DNA of 64,000 nt from an uncultured Candidatus Saccharibacteria bacterium (GCA_964415895.1 CAYQCC010000003.1:3053-67052); one strand, 5' to 3'; numbered from the stretch's first letter, positions 152-41,172 are shown. The notes: generated from the sequence alone by a model not told the origin. Program-made: numbers and translations.

Positions 152-236
152 GGAGGCGTGGATGAGTGGTTTAAATCAACAGTCTTGAAAACTGTCGACT
201 CGAAAGGGTCCGTGAGTTCGAATCTCACCGCCTCCG
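152..236 (+). tRNA. tRNA-Ser (anticodon TGA), class II with long variable arm
   Basis: Acceptor GGAGGCG/CGCCTCC; anticodon stem ACAGT/ACTGT with loop CTTGAAA (U33, anticodon UGA); long variable arm CGACTCGAAAGGGTCCG; T-arm GTGAG-TTCGAAT-CTCAC; discriminator G. Confidence 0.85.
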
Positions 237-1919
237 CATAGTGATACAAAACTCTTCGTTTTGATGATTTAACCCTTCGTATGTAAGGGTTTTTTCATTG
301 CCGAACCCCTCAAAATTGCTCTGTATCATTTTTATCCCAGAAAAGAATACTTCTATTGATTTTTTACTGTAAAATATGAGTTTTTCTTCATCCCATACTA
401 TGTTCGAACCCAGTGCAGTTAACACTCTTCTTTTTGCTTCATACGAACCGTTTTCAATTGTGTTTATTACTGATGATGCAACATCTGTTATTTCATCTAG
501 TTTTTTTACCCATTCAGTATTTACTGGCTTTGAATTATAAATATCGGAGTATTCAATATCTATCTCTGCCAAGAAATCATCTCGTTCTTCTTTTGTAAGT
601 GAGCCTTCAATAAATAATCTTGTGGCTCGTTTCTTTTTATCATCATACTGCTGTTTTCTTTTTTCAATATCTTCAATTTTTCGTAGACCATCTTTTACTT
701 CCTGTTCAGCTATTTCGTGAATATATTTCTTACCCCAATCAATGAAAGGGCTTGGAGTAGAGAGGTTGTCTTTTGCGTACTGAATAAATTCAGTATTTAC
801 TCTCTCTTCAGTCACAGAATGATATTCAAGTTTTTTCTTTTTCTTTCGGTTATCAAAATAATACTGTTGTATAAAATACTTAGGGTTTTCGAGTGTTGAA
901 ATTCGTTTGTTACATTTTGGACAGTGAGTTTTATCTCTATACGCAAATTTATGTTTGCAGTCGCACCATAGTTGTACTTTGATGTCCTGAGAAAGAGTGT
1001 ATCCTAGTGACGAATTAATAAAACCTGTATAGGTCATTTCGTGTTTTTGGTTTTTAGGCTTGTTTCTACCACCCAATATCTGCTCAATCTTGTTAAAATT
1101 GGTTTCGGTAATCATTCTTGGTAGGTTACTATCGAGCGTATGTCTCTCACCTTGAACATAAAAGAAACCTGCGATAACTGGATTATGGAGAAGTTTTCCA
1201 ATATATTCTCGAGTGACAAAATTTCCTCCTAAATTTTTATGTTTCGCTGTTGTAAGTTTTAATTCTTCAACGGCGTATTTATGAATTTTTGTAATGGAAT
1301 ATCTCCCTGAAAGAAATTCCTCTAAAAGTTTTTGGACTTTCCAAAAACGTTCATCATCCACATACCACCAACGTGTTCCTTTTTCTCCCTGTTTTGAATT
1401 TAGGTAACCAATAGTTGCAAGTCCTGAAGGTAGCCCCATTGTACGAGCCTTGTCTCGCTGTCCTCGTTTTACATCTCTACTGAGTGCTAGGGAATACTCT
1501 TTTGATGCACCAAATTTCTGTGCTATGACTGATACGTCGGAACTGTCATCCCAGACTTCAATGTTGTCATCACAAACAGTAATAATCATCAACTTGCCTT
1601 CACTCAAAAGGTCAATGAGAATACCTCCTTCGGTCATATTGCGAGCGATACGGTTCAAGTGCCACGCTAAAATACAGTTTATTTTTCCTGAAAAAATATC
1701 ACTCAACATTTGAGTAAACAGTGGTCGCTTGTGTGCATTTTTTGCAGAGCGAGCTTCTTGGTATTTTGATATTGCTGGAGTGAGAGTTTTATGTTTCTCT
1801 CTCACTTTGTTTATTGCGTCTTCTTGTCCCTCAAGTGATAGTACCTGTCTCTCTCCGTCTCGAGAAGATTTTCTCAAGTATTCAGCAATCTTTAAGTTTT
1901 TATTTTCTAGTTTTTCCAT
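225..1919 (-). CDS. Large serine recombinase (resolvase/integrase family, serine catalytic N-domain plus C-terminal recombinase/zinc-ribbon domain)
   Basis: N-terminal 'AEYLRKSSRDGERQVLSLEGQ' catalytic-serine motif; C-terminal Cys cluster 'CDCKHK...HCPKCNK'; 564 aa; stop lies ~12 nt inside the 3' end of tRNA-Ser. Confidence 0.8.
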   Translation of the reverse strand: MEKLENKNLKIAEYLRKSSRDGERQVLSLEGQEDAINKVREKHKTLTPAISKYQEARSAKNAHKRPLFTQMLSDIFSGKINCILAWHLNRIARNMTEGGILIDLLSEGKLMIITVCDDNIEVWDDSSDVSVIAQKFGASKEYSLALSRDVKRGQRDKARTMGLPSGLATIGYLNSKQGEKGTRWWYVDDERFWKVQKLLEEFLSGRYSITKIHKYAVEELKLTTAKHKNLGGNFVTREYIGKLLHNPVIAGFFYVQGERHTLDSNLPRMITETNFNKIEQILGGRNKPKNQKHEMTYTGFINSSLGYTLSQDIKVQLWCDCKHKFAYRDKTHCPKCNKRISTLENPKYFIQQYYFDNRKKKKKLEYHSVTEERVNTEFIQYAKDNLSTPSPFIDWGKKYIHEIAEQEVKDGLRKIEDIEKRKQQYDDKKKRATRLFIEGSLTKEERDDFLAEIDIEYSDIYNSKPVNTEWVKKLDEITDVASSVINTIENGSYEAKRRVLTALGSNIVWDEEKLIFYSKKSIEVFFSGIKMIQSNFEGFGNEKTLTYEGLNHQNEEFCITMRRR

Positions 1920-2459
1920 ATAAATTAAACAAAAATGAGGTAACGACTTGGTTTCTTTTAGTTGCTACACCAGAGAAAAAGTCATTACCTCGTTTTTATT
2001 TACAAAAACATTTTTTAATAAGTCTCAAATACGATGTTCTTGTAATTCTCTGATGTAGCACTGCTAATATAGCATTTTTCTTTATCCTTTCCAAAGGGAG
2101 GCTAAAAGCCTGTGTTTACCAGTCTTTTTACCCAACTACTCGATGATTATTTTCGTTCTCATCTGATAACGTAGAAACAATAGTTTCCCTATTCAACATC
2201 ACTGTAACCGTGACGTCACTCTTGCCCCTGTCGGTAGCTTAGCGTCGGGTAGGATTATCATTTTACGCTGTTCCTATTTACCCCGCTTTGTTCTTTATCC
2301 CCACCAACTAGGGTTCCTGCCCTAGCCATCAGCTATAAAGTCTTCACATTTAACGGCATCCAAGGGGTGGCTGTGAAGTTCGCCTACCATTTCCCCTCAG
2401 CAAATCGAGCTAATACTAGCTCTGAAATAAACACACTATGTTCATTTCAGAACAAACAT

Positions 2460-2623
2460 TTAAGCTTCTAAAACACGAATTTTTAAGTCTTCTACCATAG
2501 GAACAATAATTGAAAGTCCAATTTCATTTATCTCCTCATCTGTTAATGCTCCATCAAAGTCCTCACCGAAAGTTTTTCGGAGAGCAATTCGTAAATCTTC
2601 AATTGCTTTCTTTGATAAATGCA
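2460..2623 (-). CDS. Small hypothetical protein (54 aa; MHLSKKAIEDLRIALRKTFGEDFDGALTDEEINEIGLSIIVPMVEDLKIRVLEA)
   Basis: Hand-translated uninterrupted frame below the ORF-track cutoff; protein-like composition; no recognisable family. Confidence 0.3.
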
Positions 2624-2706
2624 TAAATAAAAACACAACGTAGTGTTGTGCTTTTATAGTAAACCCATATCGTTATTGTTTATTAAACTAAATCTGGGAC
2701 CCACAT

Positions 2707-3477
2707 TTAGTATTTTTTATCAATTTCTTTTTTTATTTTAACAATATGCTGTTTATCAATATGGATTTTATGTTTTCCTAATTCTTTGGATATTTCAACA
2801 AGTGTTTTTCCTTGAGATTTTGAAATAACTTCTTTAATTTTTGAGGTTTTTGGATTATTTTTTACCTTTTTATTCTTATATAAATTTGTCGTTATGTGTT
2901 GTCTCAAAAGTGGCTTTATGTCACTTTCAAAGTGTTTATCGATAAAGTTAATTAAGTCATTTTTGGTTATTTCTGGGTGTAATAAAATACCAACTGGCTT
3001 TTCGTTAAATAGGTCCTTAGGTGTTCCTATACTTTCTTCAAACCATTCAAAATCAACCACTTCCTGTAATCCATACCTATTGTAAAATTCTGTAATCTTC
3101 TCGCTCCAATCAAAAGATATCTGATTAAAAAATAGGTAGTAAGCAACGATACTTGGTGTAAAAATTGTTATAGGTTCAATGTGTCCTTTGAGTATATTTT
3201 CTTGTATCTCTTGTCTTATTTTTTGTGCTAAGTTGTTGTTTGTTTTCTTATCTTTAGTAAGCAGTTGAGTGGGAAGAAAAAGAAGGTGTTCTTCTTCGGA
3301 CAGGATAATATATTCATCTTCAGTTATTTCAAAACCATCTTCGGGGATATGGTATTTCTGTCTCATTTCCATAATTTTGTTCACAAAAAATGGTGAGTAC
3401 ATAAAATCCTCTAGTACTTTCAAAACTTTTTTAGTTGTTTGAGGGAGCTCCTTTTTCTTTGGTGTAGCATTTTTCAT
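2707..3477 (-). CDS. Hypothetical protein, 256 aa (island cargo; C-terminal basic/HTH-like segment)
   Basis: Long ORF with coding-like composition; no motif recognised. Confidence 0.5.
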   Translation of the reverse strand: MKNATPKKKELPQTTKKVLKVLEDFMYSPFFVNKIMEMRQKYHIPEDGFEITEDEYIILSEEEHLLFLPTQLLTKDKKTNNNLAQKIRQEIQENILKGHIEPITIFTPSIVAYYLFFNQISFDWSEKITEFYNRYGLQEVVDFEWFEESIGTPKDLFNEKPVGILLHPEITKNDLINFIDKHFESDIKPLLRQHITTNLYKNKKVKNNPKTSKIKEVISKSQGKTLVEISKELGKHKIHIDKQHIVKIKKEIDKKY

Positions 3478-3720
3478 ACCCCTATAATAGCATTTTTGTC
3501 TTTATTTTTGAAGAAAATTATGATACATTTATATTGCTCAACAAACAAATTTAGTGCATTTCCTGCGAAGGCAGTTTTTGTCGTTGCTCGTCCACGGTAT
3601 TGGCATTCCAATATGAGGAAGATGAGCAATGGCAGAAATGCTTTGTTTGTTGAGCACCTCATTAATTGGGGTGCCAATACTTTGTATTAAGAAGACAAGG
3701 TTTGCACCCATTGCAACCTT

Positions 3721-4368
3721 ATGAAATATATTTATATATTCTTAATCGCAGTATTGGCAAATCTCACTTTTCAAACAAACGCCTTTGCGTATGATTACTA
3801 TTCCGACAACGGAATGAACTACAGCGATGAACAGTTCAAAAGAGATATGAAATCATATATTGATGAACAAATGACCAGACAAGAAAATCAAGAATTACTA
3901 GACCGTATTCGCTCGAAAGGCAATGGTCACACTGATACCGATATTCAGATACTTCAAGAAAAGTTTAACCAACAACAAAAAGACAATCAGATGACATTAG
4001 ACCAAATGAAGCAGATGGTTGATAGTGTAAATGCAGATACGGCTAAATTACTACAAGAAAAAGAAACGTATCAAAATACTCGCACTTTTTGTTTATCATT
4101 AGCAGAAAAATATGCTGTATCTGGAGCTACGAGTGACCTTGTGACAAATTGTAGAAAATACAATGTTGAAATACCGCTAGAGAAAAAAGTTACGACCGTT
4201 GCAGGAAAAGAAAGTGTAAAAGAGGAACCAAGAGAACAAACACTTGATGAAATTCTTGCCAGTCCAAGTAGTTCAACAACGCCTATAGCTCAAGAGGTGT
4301 CACAAAAGCAATCATTCTTTAAGCGTGCAGTTTCTCATATTAAGGGCTGGTTTTCTTGGTTACGTTAA
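3721..4368 (+). CDS. Secreted coiled-coil protein (signal peptide MKYIYIFLIAVLANLTFQTNAFA)
   Basis: N-terminal hydrophobic signal with AFA cleavage-like site; Q/E/K-rich body. Confidence 0.55.
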   Translation: MKYIYIFLIAVLANLTFQTNAFAYDYYSDNGMNYSDEQFKRDMKSYIDEQMTRQENQELLDRIRSKGNGHTDTDIQILQEKFNQQQKDNQMTLDQMKQMVDSVNADTAKLLQEKETYQNTRTFCLSLAEKYAVSGATSDLVTNCRKYNVEIPLEKKVTTVAGKESVKEEPREQTLDEILASPSSSTTPIAQEVSQKQSFFKRAVSHIKGWFSWLR

Positions 4369-4573
4369 GCTACTTTCTGCTCAGTGACCGAATACGATAT
4401 TTGCCCGAATTTGATGGTGTTTTGTTAAAATAAGTAATTGGTACATTTTAAGATGAAAAACCTTATGAAGAGGCAAATAAGTGGCTTCTAGGTGGGTATC
4501 ATATTATAGGCTTACTGTCTAAAACTTATTATACCTGTCTTGGTTAATCTTCCTTATTTTTTTGTACGCATCC

Positions 4574-4597
4574 TGTCTAATCCTGTGGAGTTTTTGG
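4574..4597. repeat. Left boundary repeat 'tgtctaatcctgtggagtttttgg' (related to 12501..12524). Further 'GTCTAATCTT' copies at 4666..4678 and 4699..4710, and a tandem 'CCCTTGGGTT' x3 at 4632..4667
   Basis: Direct sequence comparison: 13-mer gtctaatcttacg identical at 4666..4678 and 12502..12514; flanking ggagtttttg shared. Confidence 0.6.
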
Positions 4598-4740
4598 TAC
4601 TATATTTATATTATCTATTCTTATCTCTTCTACCCTTGGGTTCCCCTTGGATTTCCCTTGGGTCTAGTATCTCTGGTCTAATCTTACGCAAAGTATCTGT
4701 ATTTTCAGGTCTAATCTTGCATAGATTTTATATAGACTTT

Positions 4741-6018
4741 CTAGTCTAAGACTGTTTTAAGAGTTTCTACTACCTGTAAATTTTCTCTTAGTGCCTTCTT
4801 TACTTCAGCCTCTAATACGTCTTTCCCTTTGTGGATAACCTTATTTCTAACATCTTTATACGAAGAACACCAGTTAGTCCACAACGACTGGTTTTTATTT
4901 TCTAAGGTAAATCCAGTAACTTCTCTTAAAACTTCTTTTAATCTTGTTTTTGTTTTCCAGTTATCGTCTTTAGATATAAAATCTATAGCCTCTTGCTCAG
5001 TTAAACCTTTATTCTTTTGCAGTTTATCAACAAGAAAGTTTTCAATAAAAATCTCAAGACCTTGATAGGATTGAACAACTGCTAATGCGTAGTTTTTATG
5101 ATTAAAGGAGTTTTCAGCATCCAGCAAAAGTAAGTTATACAGGTCTGGCTTTTGACCCTCTTCAAGCATTTTTTCTATTGCCTCAATTTCAACTTTTGAG
5201 CGATTTATAGTTGCCGTTTCTACATTCATTGGAAGAAGATATAAGCCTTGATTTAGTTCAGTGAAATAAATCATATTTATACTTAGCGTACCCAATCTTG
5301 TTATGTATTCTTGCTTAGTGGTAAATCGATAACTATCAATAAGTTTATTTACCGCATCAAGGGCTTTTTCATTGACCGTGTCTATAACTTTTTCTGATAG
5401 CTCTTTATTCTCGAGGTCTTCTTTTTTGACTTCTAAGTTGAACTGAATATATAAGCGAGTAAATCTGAAAATACCGTTTGTGTCCTTAATTTTTTGAAGG
5501 TTGATGCCTGTGTAATTTTGTTCCCAGCCATCACTAGGGTCAATTGGCATTTTAGGAGTAAGGAATTCACTGTCTTTTAAGTATGTAATTCTATCATCTG
5601 CGTAGAAATCAACTTCATCGGACGGTTTTCCGTCTGAAATAGCTTTTTTTGTCCAAATCTTTTGAGGTGTTAAAAGAGCAGCATCATCAGGGGTGTGTAA
5701 TAAGACTTCAAGGTCATAATTGTTTGGTATATGTAGACAGTAAGGTAGATGAGCTTCAACAAATACATTTCCGTAATCGAAATCTTTCATTGCATTTCTG
5801 CCATTAAAACTAAAAAAAGATTGTGCTACAAAAATACCACTTCCTCCTGTTGGGGATGTTTTTGTGATTTCAGTAAGCAATACAGATTTTGCATCATCTT
5901 CATTTAATTGTTTAAAGCTTTCATCTAATAAAGCATTAAAATTAATGAACTCGCCAGTTAAGCCTGATTTTGCTTGCATATTAATATGGACCACTTTTCG
6001 TTTGTATGGGTCTGACAT
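4741..6018 (-). CDS. Hypothetical 425-aa protein with C-terminal Rx4H (HEPN-like) motif 'VRNKVIHKG'; candidate abortive-infection/defence protein divergent from hsdM
   Basis: ORF track; R-x4-H motif ~40 aa from the C-terminus; position directly upstream of a Type I R-M operon. Confidence 0.45.
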   Translation of the reverse strand: MSDPYKRKVVHINMQAKSGLTGEFINFNALLDESFKQLNEDDAKSVLLTEITKTSPTGGSGIFVAQSFFSFNGRNAMKDFDYGNVFVEAHLPYCLHIPNNYDLEVLLHTPDDAALLTPQKIWTKKAISDGKPSDEVDFYADDRITYLKDSEFLTPKMPIDPSDGWEQNYTGINLQKIKDTNGIFRFTRLYIQFNLEVKKEDLENKELSEKVIDTVNEKALDAVNKLIDSYRFTTKQEYITRLGTLSINMIYFTELNQGLYLLPMNVETATINRSKVEIEAIEKMLEEGQKPDLYNLLLLDAENSFNHKNYALAVVQSYQGLEIFIENFLVDKLQKNKGLTEQEAIDFISKDDNWKTKTRLKEVLREVTGFTLENKNQSLWTNWCSSYKDVRNKVIHKGKDVLEAEVKKALRENLQVVETLKTVLD

Positions 6019-6136
6019 AATTCATTCATTATATCATTTTTAGGCTAATTTGTAGTGCTATGCAAAATTATTTAGCAAGCTATAAAACCATTATTTTCTA
6101 GTAAAATGATGGTTTTTATGGTAAAATAATACTATT

Positions 6137-7594
6137 ATGTTCGAACAAACTTTTAAAAATATCGATGATATTTTACATAAAGATGCAGGCTGTGGAAGTG
6201 AGCTTGATTATGTAGAGCAAACCTCTTGGGTGTTGTTTTTGAAGTATCTTGATGATTTAGAAGAGGACCGAAAAACCGCATCAGAACTTGATGGAAAAAA
6301 GTATCTTCCTCTCATTAAACCTGAATACAAGTGGAGTGTTTGGGCAACACCAAAACGTAGCGACGGCAAGGTGGACCATAACGCAATGACAGGCGATGAT
6401 TTGTTGGATTTTGTAAACGTTAAACTCTTCCCTTATCTTAAGGGATTTAAAAAATCTGCTGAAAATGCTGATACCTTGGAATATAAAATCGGAGAAATCT
6501 TTAGTGAAATCAAAAACAGAATACAATCAGGATATAATCTACGTGAAGTAATCAATCTGATTGATACGCTACGTTTTCGTTCTGATAGCGAAAAGCACGA
6601 GATGAGCCACCTCTATGAGGCTAAAATTCAAAATATGGGTAACGCAGGGCGTAATGGTGGTGAATACTATACACCTCGTCCACTCATTACTACTATCGTG
6701 CGTGTTGTTGGTCCAAAAATTGGTGACAAGATTTATGACGGAGCAGTAGGAAGTGCAGGCTTTTTGTGTGAAGCATTTGAGTATCTAAAAAATAGCAAAA
6801 GCCTGACTACAAAAGATACCGAGATTTTACAAAAGCAAACATTCTATGGGAAAGAGAAAAAGTCTCTCGCATATATCATTGGTATTATGAATATGATTTT
6901 GCACGGTATTGAAGCGCCAAACATTATCCATACCAATACACTTGCAGAAAATCTTGCAGATATTCAAGAAAAGGACCGTTACGATGTGGTTCTTGCAAAC
7001 CCTCCTTTTGGTGGAAAAGAACGCGCAGAGGTCCAACAAAACTTTCCCATAAAAACAAGCGAGACAGCATCGCTTTTCTTGCAACATTTTATCAAGATTT
7101 TACGTGCTGGTGGACGTGCGGGTATTGTCATTAAAAATACATTTCTTAGTAACACTGACAATGCCAGCATTGCGCTTCGTAAGCAACTCCTCGAAAACTG
7201 TAACCTTCACACGGTACTTGATTTGCCAGGTGGGACCTTTACGGGTGCTGGTGTTAAAACAGTTGTGTTATTTTTCCAAAAAGGAACCCCTACACGCAAG
7301 GTGTGGTTTTATCAATTAAATCTCGACCGTAATTTAGGAAAAACTAATCCATTAAGTGAAAAGGATTTGGCTGAATTTGTAACACTACAAAAAACCTTTG
7401 CTGACAGTGATAATTCGTGGAATGTTGATGTTTCTACTATCGACCAAAATACTTTTGATTTGAGTGTAAAAAACCCTCATAAAAAGGAAGAGAAAGGATT
7501 TCGTGAACCAAAAGAGATTTTGAAAGAAATTGAAATACTTGATAAGCAAAGTAAAGATATAGTCGGGGGTATTCTGAAGTTAATCAATCCTTAA
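6137..7594 (+). CDS. hsdM: Type I restriction-modification system, DNA methyltransferase subunit M (N6-adenine)
   Basis: NPPF(G) motif IV 'VLANPPFGG'; SAM-binding 'DGAVGSAGFL'; N-terminal HsdM_N-like region; 485 aa. Confidence 0.9.
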   Translation: MFEQTFKNIDDILHKDAGCGSELDYVEQTSWVLFLKYLDDLEEDRKTASELDGKKYLPLIKPEYKWSVWATPKRSDGKVDHNAMTGDDLLDFVNVKLFPYLKGFKKSAENADTLEYKIGEIFSEIKNRIQSGYNLREVINLIDTLRFRSDSEKHEMSHLYEAKIQNMGNAGRNGGEYYTPRPLITTIVRVVGPKIGDKIYDGAVGSAGFLCEAFEYLKNSKSLTTKDTEILQKQTFYGKEKKSLAYIIGIMNMILHGIEAPNIIHTNTLAENLADIQEKDRYDVVLANPPFGGKERAEVQQNFPIKTSETASLFLQHFIKILRAGGRAGIVIKNTFLSNTDNASIALRKQLLENCNLHTVLDLPGGTFTGAGVKTVVLFFQKGTPTRKVWFYQLNLDRNLGKTNPLSEKDLAEFVTLQKTFADSDNSWNVDVSTIDQNTFDLSVKNPHKKEEKGFREPKEILKEIEILDKQSKDIVGGILKLINP

Positions 7595-7599
7595 GATAT

Positions 7600-8832
7600 A
7601 TGCTTACAAATACCACAACAAATACATTTAACTTATCGCAAGATAACATTGAAGATATTGCAATTAATACTTCAAATGACGGAGAAACCTGCTATATTTC
7701 GAGAGCAGACAACAGAACCATATTTTATGGTGATTTTATTATTTACGATGGACCAAAAGTAAAAAAGTGTTGTAGTGTTACCTTTCAAAAAAGTAGCAAG
7801 ACGACAAAGTTTATACCTAGATTGGTTTTTTATAAAATCAACCAAGAAGGTAATATCGTAGACACGAATAGTCAGAAAGTAAACATTGAATTTAATCAAT
7901 CAGAAACAGGGCTATTTGAGTTTTGGAAGCTAATCTCATTCCTTAAGGGGTATAAAGACTTGATTGATGTCGGTGACTTTGATGAAAAGTATAAAGTTAT
8001 TGATAATTCTTTGTACATTGCAGAATTTAAAAATAAACAAGAATTTGATAAGGTACAAGAATTAAAAAAGCTAGATATTGATGAGGATACTCTTAAATCA
8101 TATTTAGCAGATAAACGAAAAGATGATTTAGTTTTATTTGCACAACTTTTAGCCGATAATAAGGCTAGAGAAGATTATCGAACTCAATACAATGTTACAA
8201 AGCAAGGAGATGAGGCAATATGGCATCATTTCTTAAAAAATAGAACTTGGATATTGGGCTTAAATACAGAACTTAAGTTTATTCAGGACTTTGCCGATGA
8301 GGTCCACGTTGGTAATCCTGATACAACAAACAAAGGAAATCCAACCACTGATTTAATGGGTATTTCAGACTATACCACCCTTGTTGAGCTAAAAACCTCT
8401 GAAACTAAGTTCTTTACAGAAACTAAAACATCAAATTCTCGAGCTGGTACTTGGTCTTTTTCCGCAGAGTTTATTGAGGGTATAAGTCAATGCTTATCTC
8501 AAAAAAATAGTTGGGATAAAAATCAGGGTTCTAAGCAATTAGTTGTTGATGGAAGCGTTAAAGACCAAAACGTTTATAGAACTACTGACCCAAACACTGT
8601 ATTTATTATCGGAAACAAAGAAAAAGAATTACCCAAAAACCAAACAACTCCAGATATTCTCGTAAAAAGAGATACACTTGAAAGATTTCGTCGAAATAGT
8701 CGAAATGTTGTTATCATTTCATATGATGAGCTTTACCAAAAGGCTTATTATATAGTTCACCATACAACTGCTCCAGATTTGGTGTACGATAATGAAAAAT
8801 TATCAGAAGACACTAATAGTATCCCATTTTAA
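7600..8832 (+). CDS. Uncharacterised 410-aa protein embedded between hsdM and hsdS; C-terminal PD-(D/E)xK-like motif (D...ELK); candidate R-M-embedded defence nuclease (DUF4263/Shedu-like?)
   Basis: 5-nt and 3-nt gaps to hsdM and hsdS indicate co-transcription; motif 'GISDYTTLVELKTSE'; no M/S/R-subunit motifs. Confidence 0.5.
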   Translation: MLTNTTTNTFNLSQDNIEDIAINTSNDGETCYISRADNRTIFYGDFIIYDGPKVKKCCSVTFQKSSKTTKFIPRLVFYKINQEGNIVDTNSQKVNIEFNQSETGLFEFWKLISFLKGYKDLIDVGDFDEKYKVIDNSLYIAEFKNKQEFDKVQELKKLDIDEDTLKSYLADKRKDDLVLFAQLLADNKAREDYRTQYNVTKQGDEAIWHHFLKNRTWILGLNTELKFIQDFADEVHVGNPDTTNKGNPTTDLMGISDYTTLVELKTSETKFFTETKTSNSRAGTWSFSAEFIEGISQCLSQKNSWDKNQGSKQLVVDGSVKDQNVYRTTDPNTVFIIGNKEKELPKNQTTPDILVKRDTLERFRRNSRNVVIISYDELYQKAYYIVHHTTAPDLVYDNEKLSEDTNSIPF

Positions 8833-8835
8833 TTT

Positions 8836-10047
8836 ATGAAAACTAACTGGGAAATAAAAAAGCTAGATGAATTATACAGGGTTGGCTCGAGTAAACGAGT
8901 GCTAAAGTCTCAATGGAAAACCAAAGGGGTGCCTTTTTATAGAGGTAGAGAGATAACACGTCTTTCCAATGATGGTTTTGTTGAAAATGAGTTGTATATT
9001 TCTGAAGAGCACTATACTGAACTTTTAGAAAAAACAGGTGTTCCAGTTGCTGGGGATATTGTTATTACTGCAATTGGGACAATCGGAAATACGTATATAG
9101 TTCGTGATACAGATAAGTTTTATTTTAAAGATGCGAGCGTTTTGTGGCTTAAAAAAATCTCCGATGTAAGTAGTGAGTTTTTGAGATATTTTTTGAAATC
9201 ATCATTATTTTTCAATCAATTAAGCAAAGGAAATGGTGCAACCGTTGACACCCTAACAATAGAAAAGTTGCAAGGAATTAAACTACCCTTGCCCTCTTTA
9301 ATTGAACAAAAACGCATTGTTTCCATTCTAGATAAAGCTTTTAGTGAAATTGAAAAAGCAAAAACAAATGCTGAGCAAAACCTCAAAAATGCGAAAGAGC
9401 TTTTTGAAAGTTATTTACAAGGGGTGTTTGAGAATAAAGGTGAAGATTGGGAAGAGAAAACATTAGGAGAGGTTTTAGTAAAAACAGAAACTGTTGACCC
9501 AACCAAAAAACCAAATAAAGAGTTTATTTATCTTGATGTTTCAAGTGTAAATAAGGAAACCAAAGAAATTGAAAATGCTACCGTTTTGCTTGGCAAAGAT
9601 GCACCAAGCCGAGCTAGAAAGTTGGTTAGAACTAACGATGTTATTTTTGCTACTGTTAGACCAACTCATAGTAGAGTTGCTCTAATTACTGATGAGTATG
9701 ATGAACAAGTTTGTAGCACAGGTTATTTTGTTTTAAGAGCAAAGGATTTTCTTAATAATAATTTTGTGTTCTATTTTCTTCTTACATACGGTTTCAATAA
9801 ACAGATGGAAAAACTTCAAAAAGGAGCAAGTTATCCTGCTGTAACTGATGCAGAAGTCAAAAGCATTGTAATACCTTTTCCAAAATCAAAAGAAGAACAA
9901 CAAGCAACCATTCAAAAATTAGATACCCTGCGAGCCGAAACCAAAAAACTTGAAGAAATATACAGAAATAAAATTACAGACTGCGAAGAACTCAAAAAGT
10001 CGATTTTACACAAAGCCTTTACTGGCGAATTATCAACCCCTAACTAA
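8836..10047 (+). CDS. hsdS: Type I restriction-modification system, specificity subunit S (two target-recognition domains)
   Basis: 403 aa; duplicated TRD architecture with conserved central and C-terminal coiled-coil spacers (LPLPSL...QKRIVSILD...; LDTLRAET). Confidence 0.8.
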   Translation: MKTNWEIKKLDELYRVGSSKRVLKSQWKTKGVPFYRGREITRLSNDGFVENELYISEEHYTELLEKTGVPVAGDIVITAIGTIGNTYIVRDTDKFYFKDASVLWLKKISDVSSEFLRYFLKSSLFFNQLSKGNGATVDTLTIEKLQGIKLPLPSLIEQKRIVSILDKAFSEIEKAKTNAEQNLKNAKELFESYLQGVFENKGEDWEEKTLGEVLVKTETVDPTKKPNKEFIYLDVSSVNKETKEIENATVLLGKDAPSRARKLVRTNDVIFATVRPTHSRVALITDEYDEQVCSTGYFVLRAKDFLNNNFVFYFLLTYGFNKQMEKLQKGASYPAVTDAEVKSIVIPFPKSKEEQQATIQKLDTLRAETKKLEEIYRNKITDCEELKKSILHKAFTGELSTPN

Positions 10048-10056
10048 TCAATTCAT

Positions 10057-12414
10057 ATGAACGAAGCAGAAACAAGAGCAGAAATGATTGACCCAAAACT
10101 AACTGCCCTCGGCTGGGGTGTTGTTGATGGTTCAAAGGTACTCCGTGAATACAACATTACCGCAGGAAAAATAAAGGTTGGAGAAAAGAGGGGTAAGCCA
10201 ATGATTGCTGACTATGTATTGGTCTACAAGGGCGTAAAATTGGCTGTTATTGAGGCAAAATCAGTAAAATTAGATGTGAGTGAAGGTGTGGCACAAGCAA
10301 AGCAATATGCGCTCAAACTAGGTATTCGTACTACCTATGCAACTAATGGTAAAGAAATCTACGCAATTGATACGATGACAGCTGATGAGGGTTCTGTGGA
10401 TACTTTTCTGTCACCAGACGAGCTATGGAATAAAACATTCGAGGTACAAAATGAATGGCGAGAAAAGTTCGCATCGGTCCCATTCGAGGATAAAAGTGGT
10501 TCGTGGTCTCCACGATATTATCAAGAGCTAGCTGTTAAAAACACCCTCGAAGCAGTTGCGAATGGTAAAAACAGAATACTCCTCACACTGGCAACAGGTA
10601 CAGGTAAAACTGCTATTTCATTTCAAATTGCGTGGAAACTATTCCAAACTCGCTGGAATTTGTCAGATAGTGGTACTCGTCGTCCGCGTATTCTATTCCT
10701 TGCGGATAGAAACATATTAGCGGACCAAGCTTTTAATGCCTTCTCTGCATTTCCTGAAGACGCACTGGTACGCATTAATCCCAAGGAAATACGCAAAGGA
10801 GGTAAAGTTCCCACAAATGGAAGTATTTTCTTTACCATATTCCAAACGTTTATGAGTGGAACAGATAGTGAAGGAAACCCTGCTCCGTATTTTGGAGAAT
10901 ATCCGCCAGATTATTTTGATTTTATTATTATCGATGAGTGTCACCGCGGAGGTGCAAATGATGAGAGTAATTGGCGAGGTATTTTAGAGTACTTTTCACC
11001 AGCGGTACAGCTCGGTCTGACAGCTACACCAAAACGAAAAGATAACGTTGATACCTATAAGTACTTTGGTGAACCAGTATACATCTACTCACTCAAAGAA
11101 GGTATTGATGACGGATTTTTGACACCGTTTAAAGTGAAGCGTATCAAAACAACACTTGATGATTATATCTATACGAGCGATGACCAAATCGTTGAGGGTG
11201 AGATTGAGGCAGGAAAACTATATCAGGAAAAAGACTTTAACCGAACCATTGAAATACGTGAACGTGAAGCAAAACGTGTAAAAATCTTTTTAGATGATGC
11301 AAATCAAAACGAAAAAGCAATCATTTTCTGTGCTAATCAAACCCACGCCGCAGTGGTCCGTGATTTAGTAAATCAATACAGTGAAAGTAAGGACCCACAC
11401 TATTGTGTACGCGTAACTGCCAATGATGGCGAAATTGGCGAGCAATTCTTGCGAGAATTCCAAGATAACGAGAAGTTTATACCAACTATTCTAACTACCT
11501 CTCAAAAGCTCTCAACGGGTGTAGATGCTCGTAATATACGAAATGTAGTATTGATGCGCCCTGTGAACTCTATGATTGAATTCAAGCAGATTGTTGGTCG
11601 TGGTACTCGTTTATTTGATGGAAAGGAATTCTTTACTATCTATGACTTTGTTGATGCGTACCATCACTTTGCAGACCCAGAGTGGGACGGTGAACCTGTT
11701 TCAGATGAAGGTGATGTACTTGATGAAAATACTGGTGAAAAGATTAAGAAAGAAAAAGAGCAAGTCGAACGTGAGCCAAAAGTTGATGAAGAAAATACCG
11801 CTCCTAAAAAAGTAAAAGTGAAGCTTCGAAATGGTAAAGAAATGGAAATACAGCATATGGTTGCAACATCGTTTTGGGGAGCAGATGGTAAGCCTGTTTC
11901 TGCTGAAGAGTTCCTCCAAAACCTTTTTGGGGCACTACCACAATTCTTTACCTCTGAAGATGAATTGCGTGACCTATGGGGTAATCCAGTAACGCGTGCT
12001 ACATTACTTGAGAAACTTGAAGAAGCTGGTTATGGAAAAGAAGAACTTGCTTCACTGCAAAAACTTATTGATGCCGAAAAGAGTGATATTTTTGATGTAT
12101 TGGAATATGTTTTTAATAGTGATATCAAGCCTATAACAAGAGAAAATCGTGTCCAGTCTGCACATAATGACATTATGGGGGCCTTGTCAGAGAAACAACA
12201 AGAGTTTATCGATTTCGTACTCCAGAAATATATCGAGACAGGAGTTGAAGAATTAAGTGAAGAAAAACTATCATTGCTCCTTGTGAACAAATACCAGTCA
12301 CTCACAGATGCACAAAGTGCTCTAGGAGATACGACATCTATTCGCTCACTTTTCTTTAATTTCCAAAAGTATTTGTATCGTAAACCGAAACAAGAAACAT
12401 ACACAAAGGTTTAA
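10057..12414 (+). CDS. hsdR: Type I restriction enzyme R subunit (N-terminal PD-(D/E)xK nuclease plus SF2 helicase)
   Basis: Motif I 'LATGTGKT', motif II 'DECHRG', N-terminal 'VIEAKS' nuclease core; 785 aa; follows hsdS by 9 nt. Confidence 0.85.
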   Translation: MNEAETRAEMIDPKLTALGWGVVDGSKVLREYNITAGKIKVGEKRGKPMIADYVLVYKGVKLAVIEAKSVKLDVSEGVAQAKQYALKLGIRTTYATNGKEIYAIDTMTADEGSVDTFLSPDELWNKTFEVQNEWREKFASVPFEDKSGSWSPRYYQELAVKNTLEAVANGKNRILLTLATGTGKTAISFQIAWKLFQTRWNLSDSGTRRPRILFLADRNILADQAFNAFSAFPEDALVRINPKEIRKGGKVPTNGSIFFTIFQTFMSGTDSEGNPAPYFGEYPPDYFDFIIIDECHRGGANDESNWRGILEYFSPAVQLGLTATPKRKDNVDTYKYFGEPVYIYSLKEGIDDGFLTPFKVKRIKTTLDDYIYTSDDQIVEGEIEAGKLYQEKDFNRTIEIREREAKRVKIFLDDANQNEKAIIFCANQTHAAVVRDLVNQYSESKDPHYCVRVTANDGEIGEQFLREFQDNEKFIPTILTTSQKLSTGVDARNIRNVVLMRPVNSMIEFKQIVGRGTRLFDGKEFFTIYDFVDAYHHFADPEWDGEPVSDEGDVLDENTGEKIKKEKEQVEREPKVDEENTAPKKVKVKLRNGKEMEIQHMVATSFWGADGKPVSAEEFLQNLFGALPQFFTSEDELRDLWGNPVTRATLLEKLEEAGYGKEELASLQKLIDAEKSDIFDVLEYVFNSDIKPITRENRVQSAHNDIMGALSEKQQEFIDFVLQKYIETGVEELSEEKLSLLLVNKYQSLTDAQSALGDTTSIRSLFFNFQKYLYRKPKQETYTKV

Positions 12415-12441
12415 GTGGTAGAAATTATATCTCCAAAAGAT

Positions 12442-12468
12442 AACGTCATAACAAGGCGTTATTTTTTG
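12442..12468 (+). terminator. Rho-independent terminator after hsdR (ataacg-N-cgttat + T6)
   Basis: Hairpin plus T-run immediately after hsdR stop. Confidence 0.5.
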
Positions 12469-12500
12469 TAGATTAAGTTTTCTATAAAGTTTACGTGTCT

Positions 12501-12524
12501 TGTCTAATCTTACGGAGTTTTTGT
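12501..12524. repeat. Right boundary repeat 'tgtctaatcttacggagtttttgt' (direct-orientation partner of 4574..4597)
   Basis: See left repeat; same orientation; brackets the 425-aa gene plus hsdM-X-hsdS-hsdR. Confidence 0.6.
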
Positions 12525-12637
12525 TTAATTATCTTGATTATTTCGGGTGCTTGGTTGCTCATTCATTCATTTTCTTTGGTTATTATTTTTAGAACATCTT
12601 TACAAGTTTTGGAGTAAGAATTTTTTATATAGTCTAT

Positions 12638-12788
12638 GATAGGCTATCGATAGTCTATCGTTTACTATCTTTAGATATATTGCTTATGCTTACGCTTCTT
12701 TCAATATTGCTTTCCGAACATCATCCCACGTTCGGAGTAGGGATATTTGTTTTTGTTATAGTCTAAGATAGTCTATAGATAGACTATC
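12638..12788. promoter_or_regulatory. Cluster of palindromic operator-like boxes GATAG(G/T)CTATC. Two abutting copies at 12638..12659 and an inverted pair 'gatagtctat-ag-atagactatc' at 12767..12788
   Basis: Exact palindromes read in sequence; located in a 730-bp intergenic region between hsdR and the HNH gene. Confidence 0.45.
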
Positions 12789-12832
12789 TTGTTTATATTT
12801 TACGCTTCTTCTAATATTGCTTGCCGAACATC
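12690..12832. repeat. Two 33-bp direct repeats 'ttacgcttctt(t/c)(c/t)aatattgctt(t/g)ccgaacatc' (12690..12722 and 12800..12832), 110 bp apart, flanking the palindromic boxes
   Basis: 30/33 identity by eye alignment. Confidence 0.6.
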
Positions 12833-12912
12833 GTATACCCACTTCCGCCAAGAGAATAAAGTATCGGAGCTGACTCACTTGCCTCAAATGAGTGATAATG
12901 CCCTGACCAGTA

Positions 12913-12936
12913 AAAAGCACGGTTTCGTGCTTTTTA
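12913..12936. terminator. Rho-independent terminator hairpin aaaagcacg-gttt-cgtgctttt
   Basis: Perfect 9-bp stem, 4-nt loop, T-run; explains away listed ORF 12789..12971. Confidence 0.6.
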
Positions 12937-12951
12937 CTTTAAAATTGATAT

Positions 12952-13113
12952 ATGGAAACAAAAGAAAATGAAAAAACTGAGGAAGAGATTATTATCGACA
13001 ACGAATTGGACTATCTTGCGGAAGTTCTAGTAGAAGCATTCTTAGAAGAGAAAGGGTATGAGTCAATTGATTGGTTGTATCAAAAGAAGATTTGGCAAAA
13101 AAGAAAGAAATAG
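12952..13113 (+). CDS. Small acidic ORF (53 aa; METKENEKTEEEIIIDNELDYLAEVLVEAFLEEKGYESIDWLYQKKIWQKRKK) immediately upstream of the HNH gene
   Basis: Hand translation; ends 33 nt before the 13147 start; below ORF-track cutoff. Confidence 0.3.
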   Translation: METKENEKTEEEIIIDNELDYLAEVLVEAFLEEKGYESIDWLYQKKIWQKRKK

Positions 13114-13146
13114 ATTTTTTAGGTCAATTCATGGTAGGCTAAAAAT

Positions 13147-14241
13147 ATGCCTAGATGTATTTATTGTTTGAAAACAAGTCCAGAAGTTACTTTCGACACA
13201 ACGGAACATGTAATCCCTCAGTCTTTTGGTACTTACGAACCATTAACTCCTACTCTCGAGGAGCTAGTTTGTGATTCGTGCAATTCATTGTTTTCAAAAC
13301 TTGAAACCAAATTAAGAGAAGATACCTTTGAGGGTGTTTTTGGGCAAAGACTTAACTTTCAAAATAAAAACAGTATCACCATAAGAAATAAAAATTTCAA
13401 GATTACTTCTTTAAGTGAATTTAAAGATCCAATGTTTACTAGAACATTTTTTCTTTTTAAAATTGAAGATGAAAAGATTGTGCCTGATATCAAACCTCAC
13501 ATAACTATTAAAATGAAAAATGGCGGGTATAGAGTATTTCTTATAGAAGCACTGAAAAGAATAGAGAAAGATACCAGCAGGTTCAATAAGCTTAAAAAAG
13601 ATATATCAAAACTGAGCAAAGAAGACATTTGGATTTTTGTCCCTAGAGATGATGCTTCTTTGAAAGAAGCGGAGTCGATATTAAAAGATTACGGTATTGA
13701 ATATACAGAAAAGAGTAGAGGTATAGCTGGAGAAGAAACTCCGGAAGCAGTCGAAGTCATAGAGGATTACCAAGGTGTTGTAGATAAAGAAATTTGCAGG
13801 GTTTTAGCAAAAATAGTTTTTAACTATTTTACGTATTGTGCTAAAGAACAAGGAATGGCTGATTTGGTCTTCAGTCCAAATTTTGATCCTATTCGAAACT
13901 TTATTTTAAATGGCGCTGGATATAGTGATACTTTTGTACATATGCCCGAGAGGCGAATTCTAGGGCAAGAGGTTGGAACTAATAGGTATGTCTTTGGTCA
14001 TACGGTATGTTTCGGAGAAGATGAGGCAGGGAAAGTTTATTGTCACTTAGTTCTTTTCAGTTTTCGGCCTTACACAATATCTCTGGGAATTCTTCCGCAA
14101 GAAATAAAAAATCAATTATTTGGCTGCGGGCATGTTTTTGATCCTGTAACAAAACGAATTGAAAATATTGCTCAAAATACACAACCCCGCATGCCTGATG
14201 CTCTCGATCTGTCTTTTGGACTATATAAAAGATTTAGATAG
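13147..14241 (+). CDS. HNH (His-Me finger) nuclease-domain protein with ~300-aa uncharacterised C-terminal extension; candidate defence protein
   Basis: N-terminal 'CIYC...EHVIPQSFG...CDSCNS' matches the CxxC...[DE]H...P...CxxCN HNH signature; 364 aa. Confidence 0.55.
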   Translation: MPRCIYCLKTSPEVTFDTTEHVIPQSFGTYEPLTPTLEELVCDSCNSLFSKLETKLREDTFEGVFGQRLNFQNKNSITIRNKNFKITSLSEFKDPMFTRTFFLFKIEDEKIVPDIKPHITIKMKNGGYRVFLIEALKRIEKDTSRFNKLKKDISKLSKEDIWIFVPRDDASLKEAESILKDYGIEYTEKSRGIAGEETPEAVEVIEDYQGVVDKEICRVLAKIVFNYFTYCAKEQGMADLVFSPNFDPIRNFILNGAGYSDTFVHMPERRILGQEVGTNRYVFGHTVCFGEDEAGKVYCHLVLFSFRPYTISLGILPQEIKNQLFGCGHVFDPVTKRIENIAQNTQPRMPDALDLSFGLYKRFR

Positions 14242-14439
14242 CCTCTTCAGTTAAAAGAGTAAGTTCTTTATCCATATAAACAATCCTAGCTCTCAGATTC
14301 GCCAGCAGTTCTCGCTTCTCAATCACCGTGCCTTCTTTTAGAATATACTTCGCATAGTTCCGTATATCGGTATCTTTTCTGTTCTCAACCTTGTCCGTGC
14401 TTCCAAGCACGGATCTTTGGAATATGTTAAAATACCCCT

Positions 14440-40873: not shown

Positions 40874-40901
40874 AATCCTTAGAAGGATTTTATTTTGATT
40901 A

Positions 40902-40937
40902 TAGACTTTGTGTTTTATGTGCGCCCGGTAGGAATCG
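40902..40937. repeat. 36-bp direct repeat copy of tRNA-Lys 3' end plus flank (agactttgtgttttatgtgcgcccggtaggaatcg); partner 41082..41117
   Basis: Exact 36/36 identity read in sequence. Confidence 0.8.
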
Positions 40938-41099
40938 GTCACGATCGCATAGTCGCTATCGCTCCTTGCGCCCCGACCCGGACTCGCCGACAAAATTCTC
41001 ATGCTTCGAATTTCGTAGACCGGCTCCGTCTTTCGATTCCTCCGTACTTGGTAAAACACAAAAGCCTGAACGCTTTGCGTCCAGACTTTGTGTTTTATG

Positions 41100-41172
41100 T
41101 GCGCCCGGTAGGAATCGAACCTACGACCCTCTGCTTAAAAGGCAGGTGCTCTACCAGCTGAGCTACAGGCGC
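41100..41172 (-). tRNA. tRNA-Lys (anticodon TTT)
   Basis: Reverse complement GCGCCTG-TA-GCTC-AGCTGGTA-GAGC-A-CCTGC-CTTTTAA-GCAGA-GGGTC-GTAGG-TTCGATT-CCTAC-CGGGCGC-A. Confidence 0.9.

Follow-up and report, generated by a model that had tools for sequence, protein, structure and literature searches.

Composite islands of the SCCmec type are moved by Ccr large serine recombinases, which insert at the 3′ end of a conserved gene, and repeats of the integration site lie between their modules. Plasmid iterons and arrays of short operator repeats include the Rep iterons, the R1 parC partition site with its 11-bp repeats, and the heptads of the omega repressor. The tycheposons of Prochlorococcus are cargo islands that target tRNA genes, a minority of them with a large serine recombinase (bioRxiv 10.1101/2020.12.28.424599). 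Type I restriction-modification (R-M) loci may have other defence genes embedded in them: Shedu has been found inside R-M loci in 602 cases (bioRxiv 10.1101/2023.08.10.552793), and TgvAB is a further example, in the Vibrio pathogenicity island VPI-2 (PMC12409362). Here we analyse a stretch of 64,000 nucleotides (the window) from an uncultured Candidatus Saccharibacteria bacterium (GCA_964415895.1, CAYQCC010000003.1:3053-67052), in which two related direct repeats bracket a block of about 7.9 kb of defence genes.

The preliminary description of this locus had read the bracketed block as a discrete unit acquired by recombination, with att-like or resolution sites at its edges and the nearby serine recombinase as the candidate enzyme. 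Comparison with related loci points to a larger element. We give a probability of roughly 0.45 to the explanation that we favour as a whole: a 12.6-kb island borne by its recombinase, with modular cargo and four island-specific copies of the repeat, which would be putative protein-binding sites.

A predicted island at the end of tRNA-Ser(TGA)

The ends of the island are marked by the following features.
152-237, plus strand: tRNA-Ser(TGA) (ARAGORN, Rfam), whose last bases are the bacterial (B) half of attL
225-1919, minus strand: large serine recombinase, 564 amino acids (Pfam Resolvase; weak NCBIfam matches to XisF and CcrA/B/C)
12682-12746, plus strand: degenerate duplicate of the att-like right-end block, with a degenerate core (nhmmer E=2.8e-11; repeat family D1, 91% identical over 33 nt)
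12793-12856, plus strand: attR, with the conserved phage-type (P) arm, TTGCCGAAC followed by 15 nt, the core TCCGC at 12844-12848, then the original CCA of the tRNA and its downstream flank

We set the ends by comparison with four related loci, among them L006, L008 and L100. On the left, homology to L008 and L006 spans the recombinase and reaches TGCGG, the end of the tRNA. Just beyond TGCGG the homology to L006 breaks, and the L008 contig terminates within tRNA-like sequence. On the right, L008, L006 and L100 keep a block of about 60 nt (12793-12851), which ends in CTTCCGCCAA, and diverge beyond it; homology to all three ceases at CTTCCGCCAA (12842-12851). The ends are conserved and the cargo is variable: the left arm and the right-end block are kept, and the cargo is unrelated in L008, L100 and L006. 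These homology breaks delimit the mobile unit as a predicted 12.6-kb integrative island, at about 238-12848, inserted at the discriminator/CCA end of tRNA-Ser(TGA). Measured from these ends, at about 237/238 and at 12844-12848, the left and right repeats are 4.3 kb and 0.33 kb into the island. They are internal to it and not the boundaries of the unit, as had been supposed.

The only sequence common to attL and attR is TCCGC (233-237 and 12844-12848), and joining the flanks regenerates ...CGCCTCC-G-CCA, a tRNA with an encoded CCA end. Excision of the whole island would leave an empty attB reading ...CGCCTCCGCCAAGAG... (about 237 joined to about 12849), and the excised circle would carry a junction of ...CCCACTTCCGC with ATAGTGATAC.... 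The attB and attP half-sites of large serine recombinases differ by a 5-bp offset. Read from the sequence, the distance between the core and a CGAA motif is 10 nt in the tRNA arm but 15 nt in the island arm, and L008 and L006 share the 15-nt spacing. By analogy, we infer that the difference in CGAA spacing would represent this offset.

In the window the tRNA gene and the recombinase gene converge and overlap, with the stop codon and the last four codons of the recombinase lying across attL, within the tRNA. Because the stop codon sits in the tRNA, excision of the island would extend the recombinase by about 14 residues. The enzyme had been proposed to act on the repeats. We retain it as the predicted enzyme of the 12.6-kb island, but its own att sites lie elsewhere and are unrelated to the repeats. 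The CcrA/B/C profiles of NCBIfam give it scores of 27-38 bits against family cut-offs of 700-900. We found 64 homologues, and those that are taxonomically named come from candidate-phyla bacteria, for example Nomurabacteria, Kaiserbacteria and Minisyncoccia. Most relatives adjoin the 3′ end of a tRNA, namely tRNA-Asn(GTT) at 14 loci, tRNA-Ser(GCT) at L012 and L013, and tRNA-Ser(TGA) at L100. In L100 the island is thus at the same tRNA as in the window, again adjoining the recombinase, and its cargo is wholly different. In the family (window 152-1919; L012-L047 and L100), the recombinase gene is convergent to the tRNA and 0-250 nt from its 3′ end.

Modular composition of the cargo

Between the recombinase end and the right end of the island, annotation of the window gave these genes.
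2707-3477, minus strand: 256-amino-acid protein of unassigned family (translation)
3721-4368, plus strand: 215-amino-acid protein, predicted secreted, with a signal-peptide-like N-terminus by eye
4741-6018, minus strand: HEPN-like gene, 425 amino acids (Pfam HEPN_Apea E=0.003; PADLOC CARF_HEPN E=6e-4), with a weak C-terminal signal
6137-7594, plus strand: hsdM (Pfam, PADLOC)
7600-8832, plus strand: sduA, a Shedu nuclease (Pfam, PADLOC), the gene previously called X
8836-10047, plus strand: hsdS (Pfam, PADLOC)
10057-12414, plus strand: hsdR (Pfam, PADLOC)

The repeats do bracket the HEPN-like gene together with hsdM-X-hsdS-hsdR, as first described, and X is Shedu SduA. The interval 6137-12414 is a type I R-M operon with embedded Shedu: the HsdM, HsdS and HsdR domains and the C-terminal nuclease domain of SduA are all present, and the genes are co-oriented. 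In L092, the closest relative, the gene order hsdM, sduA, hsdS, hsdR is kept. A search for near-identical copies of the cassette returned none, the closest Shedu being 58% and the closest HEPN-like protein 81% identical.

That HEPN-like gene, at 81% amino acid identity, is in L009, an island with a different serine recombinase and without the R-M operon. The DNA homology (4772-6054) falls about 30 nt short of the stop codon at 4741, and the protein homology reaches the C-terminus. A related R-M operon is found in L037, an island of the tRNA-Asn clade (HsdM 80%, HsdR 73%), where homology begins exactly at the hsdM start codon. The L037 operon lacks Shedu and has a 228-amino-acid open reading frame (ORF) between hsdS and hsdR. 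Since the HEPN-like gene and the R-M operon turn up in separate islands elsewhere, the 7.9-kb block is composite. The module boundaries in L009 and L037 are gene ends, away from the repeats. The comparison shows the interval from about 2.6 to 12.8 kb to be variable cargo from independent modules: the 256-amino-acid gene, the 215-amino-acid gene, the HEPN-like gene, and the R-M operon with Shedu. The idea of acquisition thus stands in part. The R-M and defence genes would be horizontally acquired cargo of a recombinase-mobilised island, but L009 and L037 argue against the 7.9-kb block as one discrete unit.

Pfam annotation of the window places no recombinase gene within the 7.9-kb block. The check that had been proposed on relatives, for empty sites or for the same repeats around other cargo, found neither. 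Nor did we find a hybrid or circle junction or a second cargo; other samples gave only contigs identical to this organism's. Repeat-flanked cargo analogous to that of the window is absent from L008 and L100, and L006 has it only as att-like blocks. In L006, a relative that carries CBASS, a 102-nt att-like block occurs three times (158-269, 986-1095 and 3489-3601), 73-87% identical to the reference copy. Each block is followed by a terminator hairpin, and the blocks separate three cargo modules. The arrangement suggests a possible accretion of modules without a recombinase.

Repeat copies in the two spacers

The repeats and the elements around them are as follows.
4517-4752, plus strand: left repeat cluster, with three 17-nt cores, tandem repeats and the 50-nt copy
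4574-4596, plus strand: left 23-mer, within the 50-nt copy 4565-4614, in the spacer between two convergent genes
4571-4587, 4672-4688 and 4705-4721, plus strand: the 17-nt cores of the left spacer (pattern and repeat-family searches)
4611-4631: TTATCTATTC, two copies, left spacer
4633-4663: CCCTTGGGTTC, 2.8 copies, left spacer (tandem repeat finder)
4743-4752: AGTCTAAGAC, at the end of the left cluster
12501-12523, plus strand: right 23-mer, within the 50-nt copy 12492-12541, with its 17-nt core at 12498-12514
12629-12660 and 12758-12787 (region 12628-12788), plus strand: two sets of three 11-bp palindromic repeats GATAGNCTATC (tandem repeat finder, repeat families D1/D5/I6, pattern scan, alignment)

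The flanks that drew attention to the block are at 4574-4597 and 12501-12524, in the same orientation, exactly where they had been placed. The two 23-mers have the consensus TGTCTAATC(C/T)T(G/A)(T/C)GGAGTTTTTG and are identical at 20/23 positions. Allowing up to three mismatches, the 23-mer has two matches in the 64-kb window and none in 100 shuffles. Aligning the repeat-containing sites, a step proposed earlier, yields a 17-nt core, TCTnGTCTAATCTTACG, from four copies starting at 4571, 4672, 4705 and 12498. The shorter GTCTAATC occurs four times in the 64 kb, always on the plus strand. Three of these copies, at 4575, 4676 and 4709, are on the left side, in agreement with the first count, and the fourth is at 12502. 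Its copy number is unremarkable, with 4 observed against 1.7 expected and at least four in 9/100 shuffles.

Some details needed revision. The exact 13-mer repeat, gtctaatcttacg, exists, but its left copy is at 4676-4688 and not at 4666-4678. Its recurrence had also been placed far outside chance. That claim does not hold, since first-order Markov simulations give 97 ± 14 exact direct 13-mer pairs and the window itself has 213. The left tandem described as threefold is there, as CCCTTGGGTTC, and measures 2.8 copies. The possibility that the repeats are a genome-wide common motif, which would have made them unrelated to the cassette, finds no support in the window or in the collections scanned. 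Within the window the motif is confined to these sites. A search of one genome per species across 185,579 species gave a single isolated Clostridium match, compatible with chance, the source genome evidently lying outside the collection, and viral contigs gave 0 matches. Neither spacer shows similarity to plasmid or phage records.

The three left copies are clustered inside 142 bp, those at 4676 and 4709 being 33 bp apart. The right copy lies 78 nt past the hsdR stop codon and about 330 nt inward of the island's right end; it also pairs with a second left copy at 16/17 (repeat family D11). In pairwise comparison the four copies are identical at 12-16/17 positions in the core and at 4-10/20 in the flanks. 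The sole exception is the 4575/12502 pair, with 14/20 in the flank and similarity reaching into GGAGTTTTTG. Both spacers carry tandem repeats with a period of 10-11 bp, TTATCTATTC and CCCTTGGGTTC on the left and the GATAGNCTATC triplets on the right. They are also the two stretches of the 64 kb richest in GTCTA: they have 7 and 6 copies, where 400 bp have 0.31 on average. GTCTA was considered as a motif uniting the left sites with the right palindromes and was rejected. On the right the 11-mers follow GATAGNCTATC, whose centre varies, so that GTCTA is in part shared by coincidence. Two tandem units of about 129 bp make up the island's right end (12621-12860), each with three GATAGNCTATC palindromes and a copy of the att-like arm.

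We looked for kinship between the repeats and the integration sites. The nhmmer profile of the right-end att block matches only 12682-12746 and 12793-12856, and gives nothing in 4369-4760 or 12492-12541 up to E=50; the repeats were therefore rejected as copies of the att block. As remnants of a tRNA 3′ end they fare no better, since no copy aligns locally to the tRNA and its flank with a score above that of shuffles. The tRNA T-arm resembles GGTCTAATCTTAC at 10/13, which is no more than chance would give (16 occurrences with up to three mismatches, 16 expected). A link between the repeats and the recombinase leader through a common 13-mer, TTTTTGTTTAATT, is not significant against shuffles.

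The repeats also do not look like resolution sites. The locus has no counterpart of the res sites on which small serine resolvases (Tn3 and gamma-delta type) act; those adjoin a resolvase of about 185 amino acids and have three dimer-binding subsites. The only recombinase is the 564-amino-acid enzyme of the large serine type, 2.6 kb from the repeats, and the repeat search found no inverted half-site arrangement. Partner att sites of a large serine recombinase have the same central crossover dinucleotide, set in an imperfect dyad of 40-50 bp. No dyad at the repeat coordinates is among the 25 longest inverted repeats listed. The centre of the 23-mer differs between the copies at 3/4 positions, CTGT against TTAC. 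A crossover within one of the identical 9- to 10-nt blocks of the 23-mer might nevertheless occur.

Interpretation of the repeats

The repeats would most likely be iteron- or operator-type candidate sites at which an island-encoded protein binds DNA. This reading is preferred on account of a core that is kept between copies whose flanks are unrelated, a pattern unlike that of a decaying duplication. Iteron and operator arrays have at least three direct copies of a 17-22-nt non-coding element with a conserved core; the element here has four. From the sequence we infer a function as candidate binding sites, and the only candidate for the binder would be the 256-amino-acid protein, in which a C-terminal stretch is helix-turn-helix-like, by eye only. 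The sites would likely serve to control transcription of the defence genes or to insulate them, or to maintain the excised circle. They would not be crossover sites, and their copies could offer short homology through which ordinary recombination might lose or swap the defence block.

Several points weigh against this reading. The 256-amino-acid protein has no match in Pfam, NCBIfam, PADLOC or PDB, and thus no detectable family; its single-sequence structure model failed, with an unusable pLDDT (predicted local distance difference test) of 40. The closest islands, L008 and L100, have no comparable internal repeats. The spacing of the copies, at 101, 33 and 7793 bp, is not uniformly in helical phase. 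The 4565/12492 pair is similar beyond the core, at 36/50, which a duplication would fit too. Finally, the sequence in which the motif was counted makes up about 90% of a single 71-kb contig from this genome.

Could two T-rich non-coding spacers simply resemble each other by chance? Exact 13-mer pairs are common (213 against about 97 expected), about 2-3 pairs at 20/23 are expected by chance per window, where 19 are observed, and GGTCTAATCTTAC with up to three mismatches is at expectation, 16 against 16. The longer match tells against it. The extended pair 4565-4614 / 12492-12541 is identical at 36/50 positions without gaps; in the whole window 11 pairs at this level were counted and 10 distinct ones listed, mostly paralogues, and each of 3 simulations gave 0. 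In the two spacers alone, 0/400 composition-matched simulations attain 20/23 or 36/50. The right copy, moreover, pairs with two different left copies, at 16/17 and 20/23. A chance origin of the 20/23 and 36/50 matches is unlikely, and coincidence as an account of the repeats is very improbable. Less credible still are duplicated small genes for hydrophobic peptides or small RNAs. One frame reads RILSNPVEFL in one copy and RVLSNLTEFL in the other, and the left reading lies within a 69-codon ORF with a TTG start. There is, however, no ATG and no ribosome-binding site, 7/10 differing codons are non-synonymous, the other GTCTAATC copies fall in another frame, Rfam gives no match and the left spacer has no promoter-like site.

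More weight belongs to the idea that the repeats are scars of modular assembly, although we consider it rather unlikely. On this view a non-coding module would have been duplicated as the defence genes joined the island, and the repeats would be what is left of its copies, without present function. They would have arisen through Campbell-type or illegitimate recombination between related islands or through tandem accretion. The similarity of 4565-4614 and 12492-12541 beyond the core fits this account (36/50; gapped score of 96 against 64 ± 8 in shuffles), as do the 129-bp register of the right copy with the two tandem units that carry the att-like block and the three 102-nt att-like blocks between the cargo modules of L006. 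Tycheposons are documented to insert one after another at a single tRNA and to leave remnants there (bioRxiv 10.1101/2020.12.28.424599). However, the left spacer has no att-like block, three of the four copies have only the 17-nt core in common, with flanks at background identity, and the module boundaries in L009 and L037 are at gene ends rather than at repeats. A tblastx comparison of the inter-repeat sequence with L006 and L008 gave weak matches only, the interval not having been searched directly with the recombinase protein. The original cassette, in which the repeats are att-like or resolution sites that move the 7.9-kb block through the island's serine recombinase or another enzyme, is improbable. 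Its appeal lies in direct copies, found nowhere else in the window, that enclose precisely the defence genes, and in the repeated recombination-type blocks between the cargo modules of L006. It has to contend with a recombinase whose own sites are elsewhere and unrelated in sequence, a 23-mer centre that differs at 3/4 positions, and a block that is composite and has no recombinase gene; among the identical contigs retrieved there was no empty site, circle junction or alternative cargo. The three att-like blocks between gene modules in L006 hint at a further version, in which the GTCTAATC elements would be secondary recombination sites for exchanging or shedding the defence block as a cassette. 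Serine recombinase islands of candidate-phyla bacteria would then resemble small integrons, stacking modules between repeated sites; we think this very doubtful.

Island backbone and neighbouring sequence

Two further elements belong to the backbone, and the HNH gene lies outside the island.
1929-1999, minus strand: covarying leader hairpin, directly upstream of the recombinase start codon, in the backbone and separate from the repeats
2460-2624, minus strand: conserved acidic ORF, 54 amino acids (tblastn matches in 28 related loci, at equal relative position)
13147-14241, plus strand: HNH protein (HNH_5 domain), outside the island

The comparison of related loci shows a backbone of the recombinase, its structured leader, the 54-amino-acid ORF and the right-end att block of about 60 nt. 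In an alignment of 25 loci the leader hairpin has 23 pairs, with 97.8% of cells paired and 7 compensatory pairs, and 0/500 shuffles match it. The hairpin is about 70 nt long and is kept at 71-91% DNA identity in more than 30 loci, most with recombinases just about 40% identical to that of the window. Its loop, TGGTGTAGCAAC, is almost invariant, and its stem sequesters GAGG and an A/U tract before the ATG. No Rfam family matches it. The hairpin is probably a translational control element, and the 54-amino-acid ORF is a candidate directionality factor or regulator. Between that ORF and the recombinase, at 2244-2400, is a GC-richer non-coding block whose DNA is conserved, in all reading frames, with L100 (75%) and L008 (about 68%). 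It may be a second structured or regulatory element.

The first gene past the backbone (window 3440-3520, minus strand; L100 5050-5130; L037 7900-7980) has an extended -10 box, TGCTATAAT, about 8 nt before its ATG. In all three loci these genes have the conserved start MKNATPK, and the proteins are otherwise unalignable. The TGCTATAAT promoter may yield a leaderless transcript.

Other repeats were seen in related islands and farther along the window. In the tRNA-Asn-clade islands L017, L022, L023, L027, L031, L036, L037 and L047, at about 11490-11690, the 8- to 9-mer TCGAACCT(A) occurs three times with a spacing of about 100 nt. The tRNA T-arm contains one copy, and the other two lie within the recombinase gene, at its 3′ end. 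In the window itself, the 3′ end of a tRNA-Lys with its flank (40894-40937) is duplicated 180 bp away at 41074-41117, over 44 nt at 91% identity, which looks like an att scar of another integrative element.

Beyond the right end of the island, at 12851-14400, a 53-amino-acid ORF and the HNH_5 protein lie between attR and a glyoxalase gene; in L100 other genes follow attR. The ORF and the HNH_5 protein may be the remnant of an older insertion at tRNA-Ser(TGA). Past the HNH gene come glyoxalase, DinB, an ABC transporter and DUF1801, all ordinary non-defence Pfam domains.

Discussion

The finding that was first flagged matters little in itself, as the repeats define no new mobile cassette. Their context is a coherent family of small islands that carry defence genes in candidate-phyla (Patescibacteria-type) bacteria, with an att geometry that can be read from the sequence and is of use for annotating mobile DNA in poorly known genomes. 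The family may be a source of compact site-specific integrases with defined targets. Of more note than the repeats are the recombinase family that targets tRNA ends and the covarying hairpin in its leader. If the repeats bind a regulator, as we prefer to read them, they would offer a handle on how the island controls its defence cargo.

Comparison with plasmid iteron and operator arrays is a functional analogy only, there being no similarity to plasmid or phage records. As in those arrays, direct copies of 17-20 nt lie in a non-coding spacer, with a conserved core and variable flanks, and there are neighbouring tandems with a period of 10-11 bp and one solitary distant copy. Unlike them, the locus has no identified Rep, Par or repressor gene, and its phasing is irregular.

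SCCmec offers a parallel for the island itself, where the large serine recombinase likewise targets the 3′ end of a conserved gene, and for L006, a composite with repeated integration-site sequences between its modules. SCC repeats, however, are the integration site itself, whereas the flagged repeats are unrelated to att, and the recombinase of the window is far below the CcrA/B/C cut-offs (27-38 against 700-900 bits).

The island and tycheposons alike have an integrase next to the 3′ end of a tRNA, and in both a small conserved integration module accompanies variable defence or adaptive cargo. The recombinase family also shows, in L006, evidence of repeated insertion or accretion, as tycheposons do. 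The differences are that the host is a candidate-phyla (Patescibacteria-type) bacterium, that the enzyme of the island family is always a serine and not a tyrosine recombinase, that the shared core is 5 nt and not a partial-tRNA direct repeat, that the island has no recognisable replication module and that the flagged repeats are not partial tRNAs. The R-M/Shedu operon, for its part, has no essential difference from the reported R-M loci with embedded defence genes, an arrangement that is already known.

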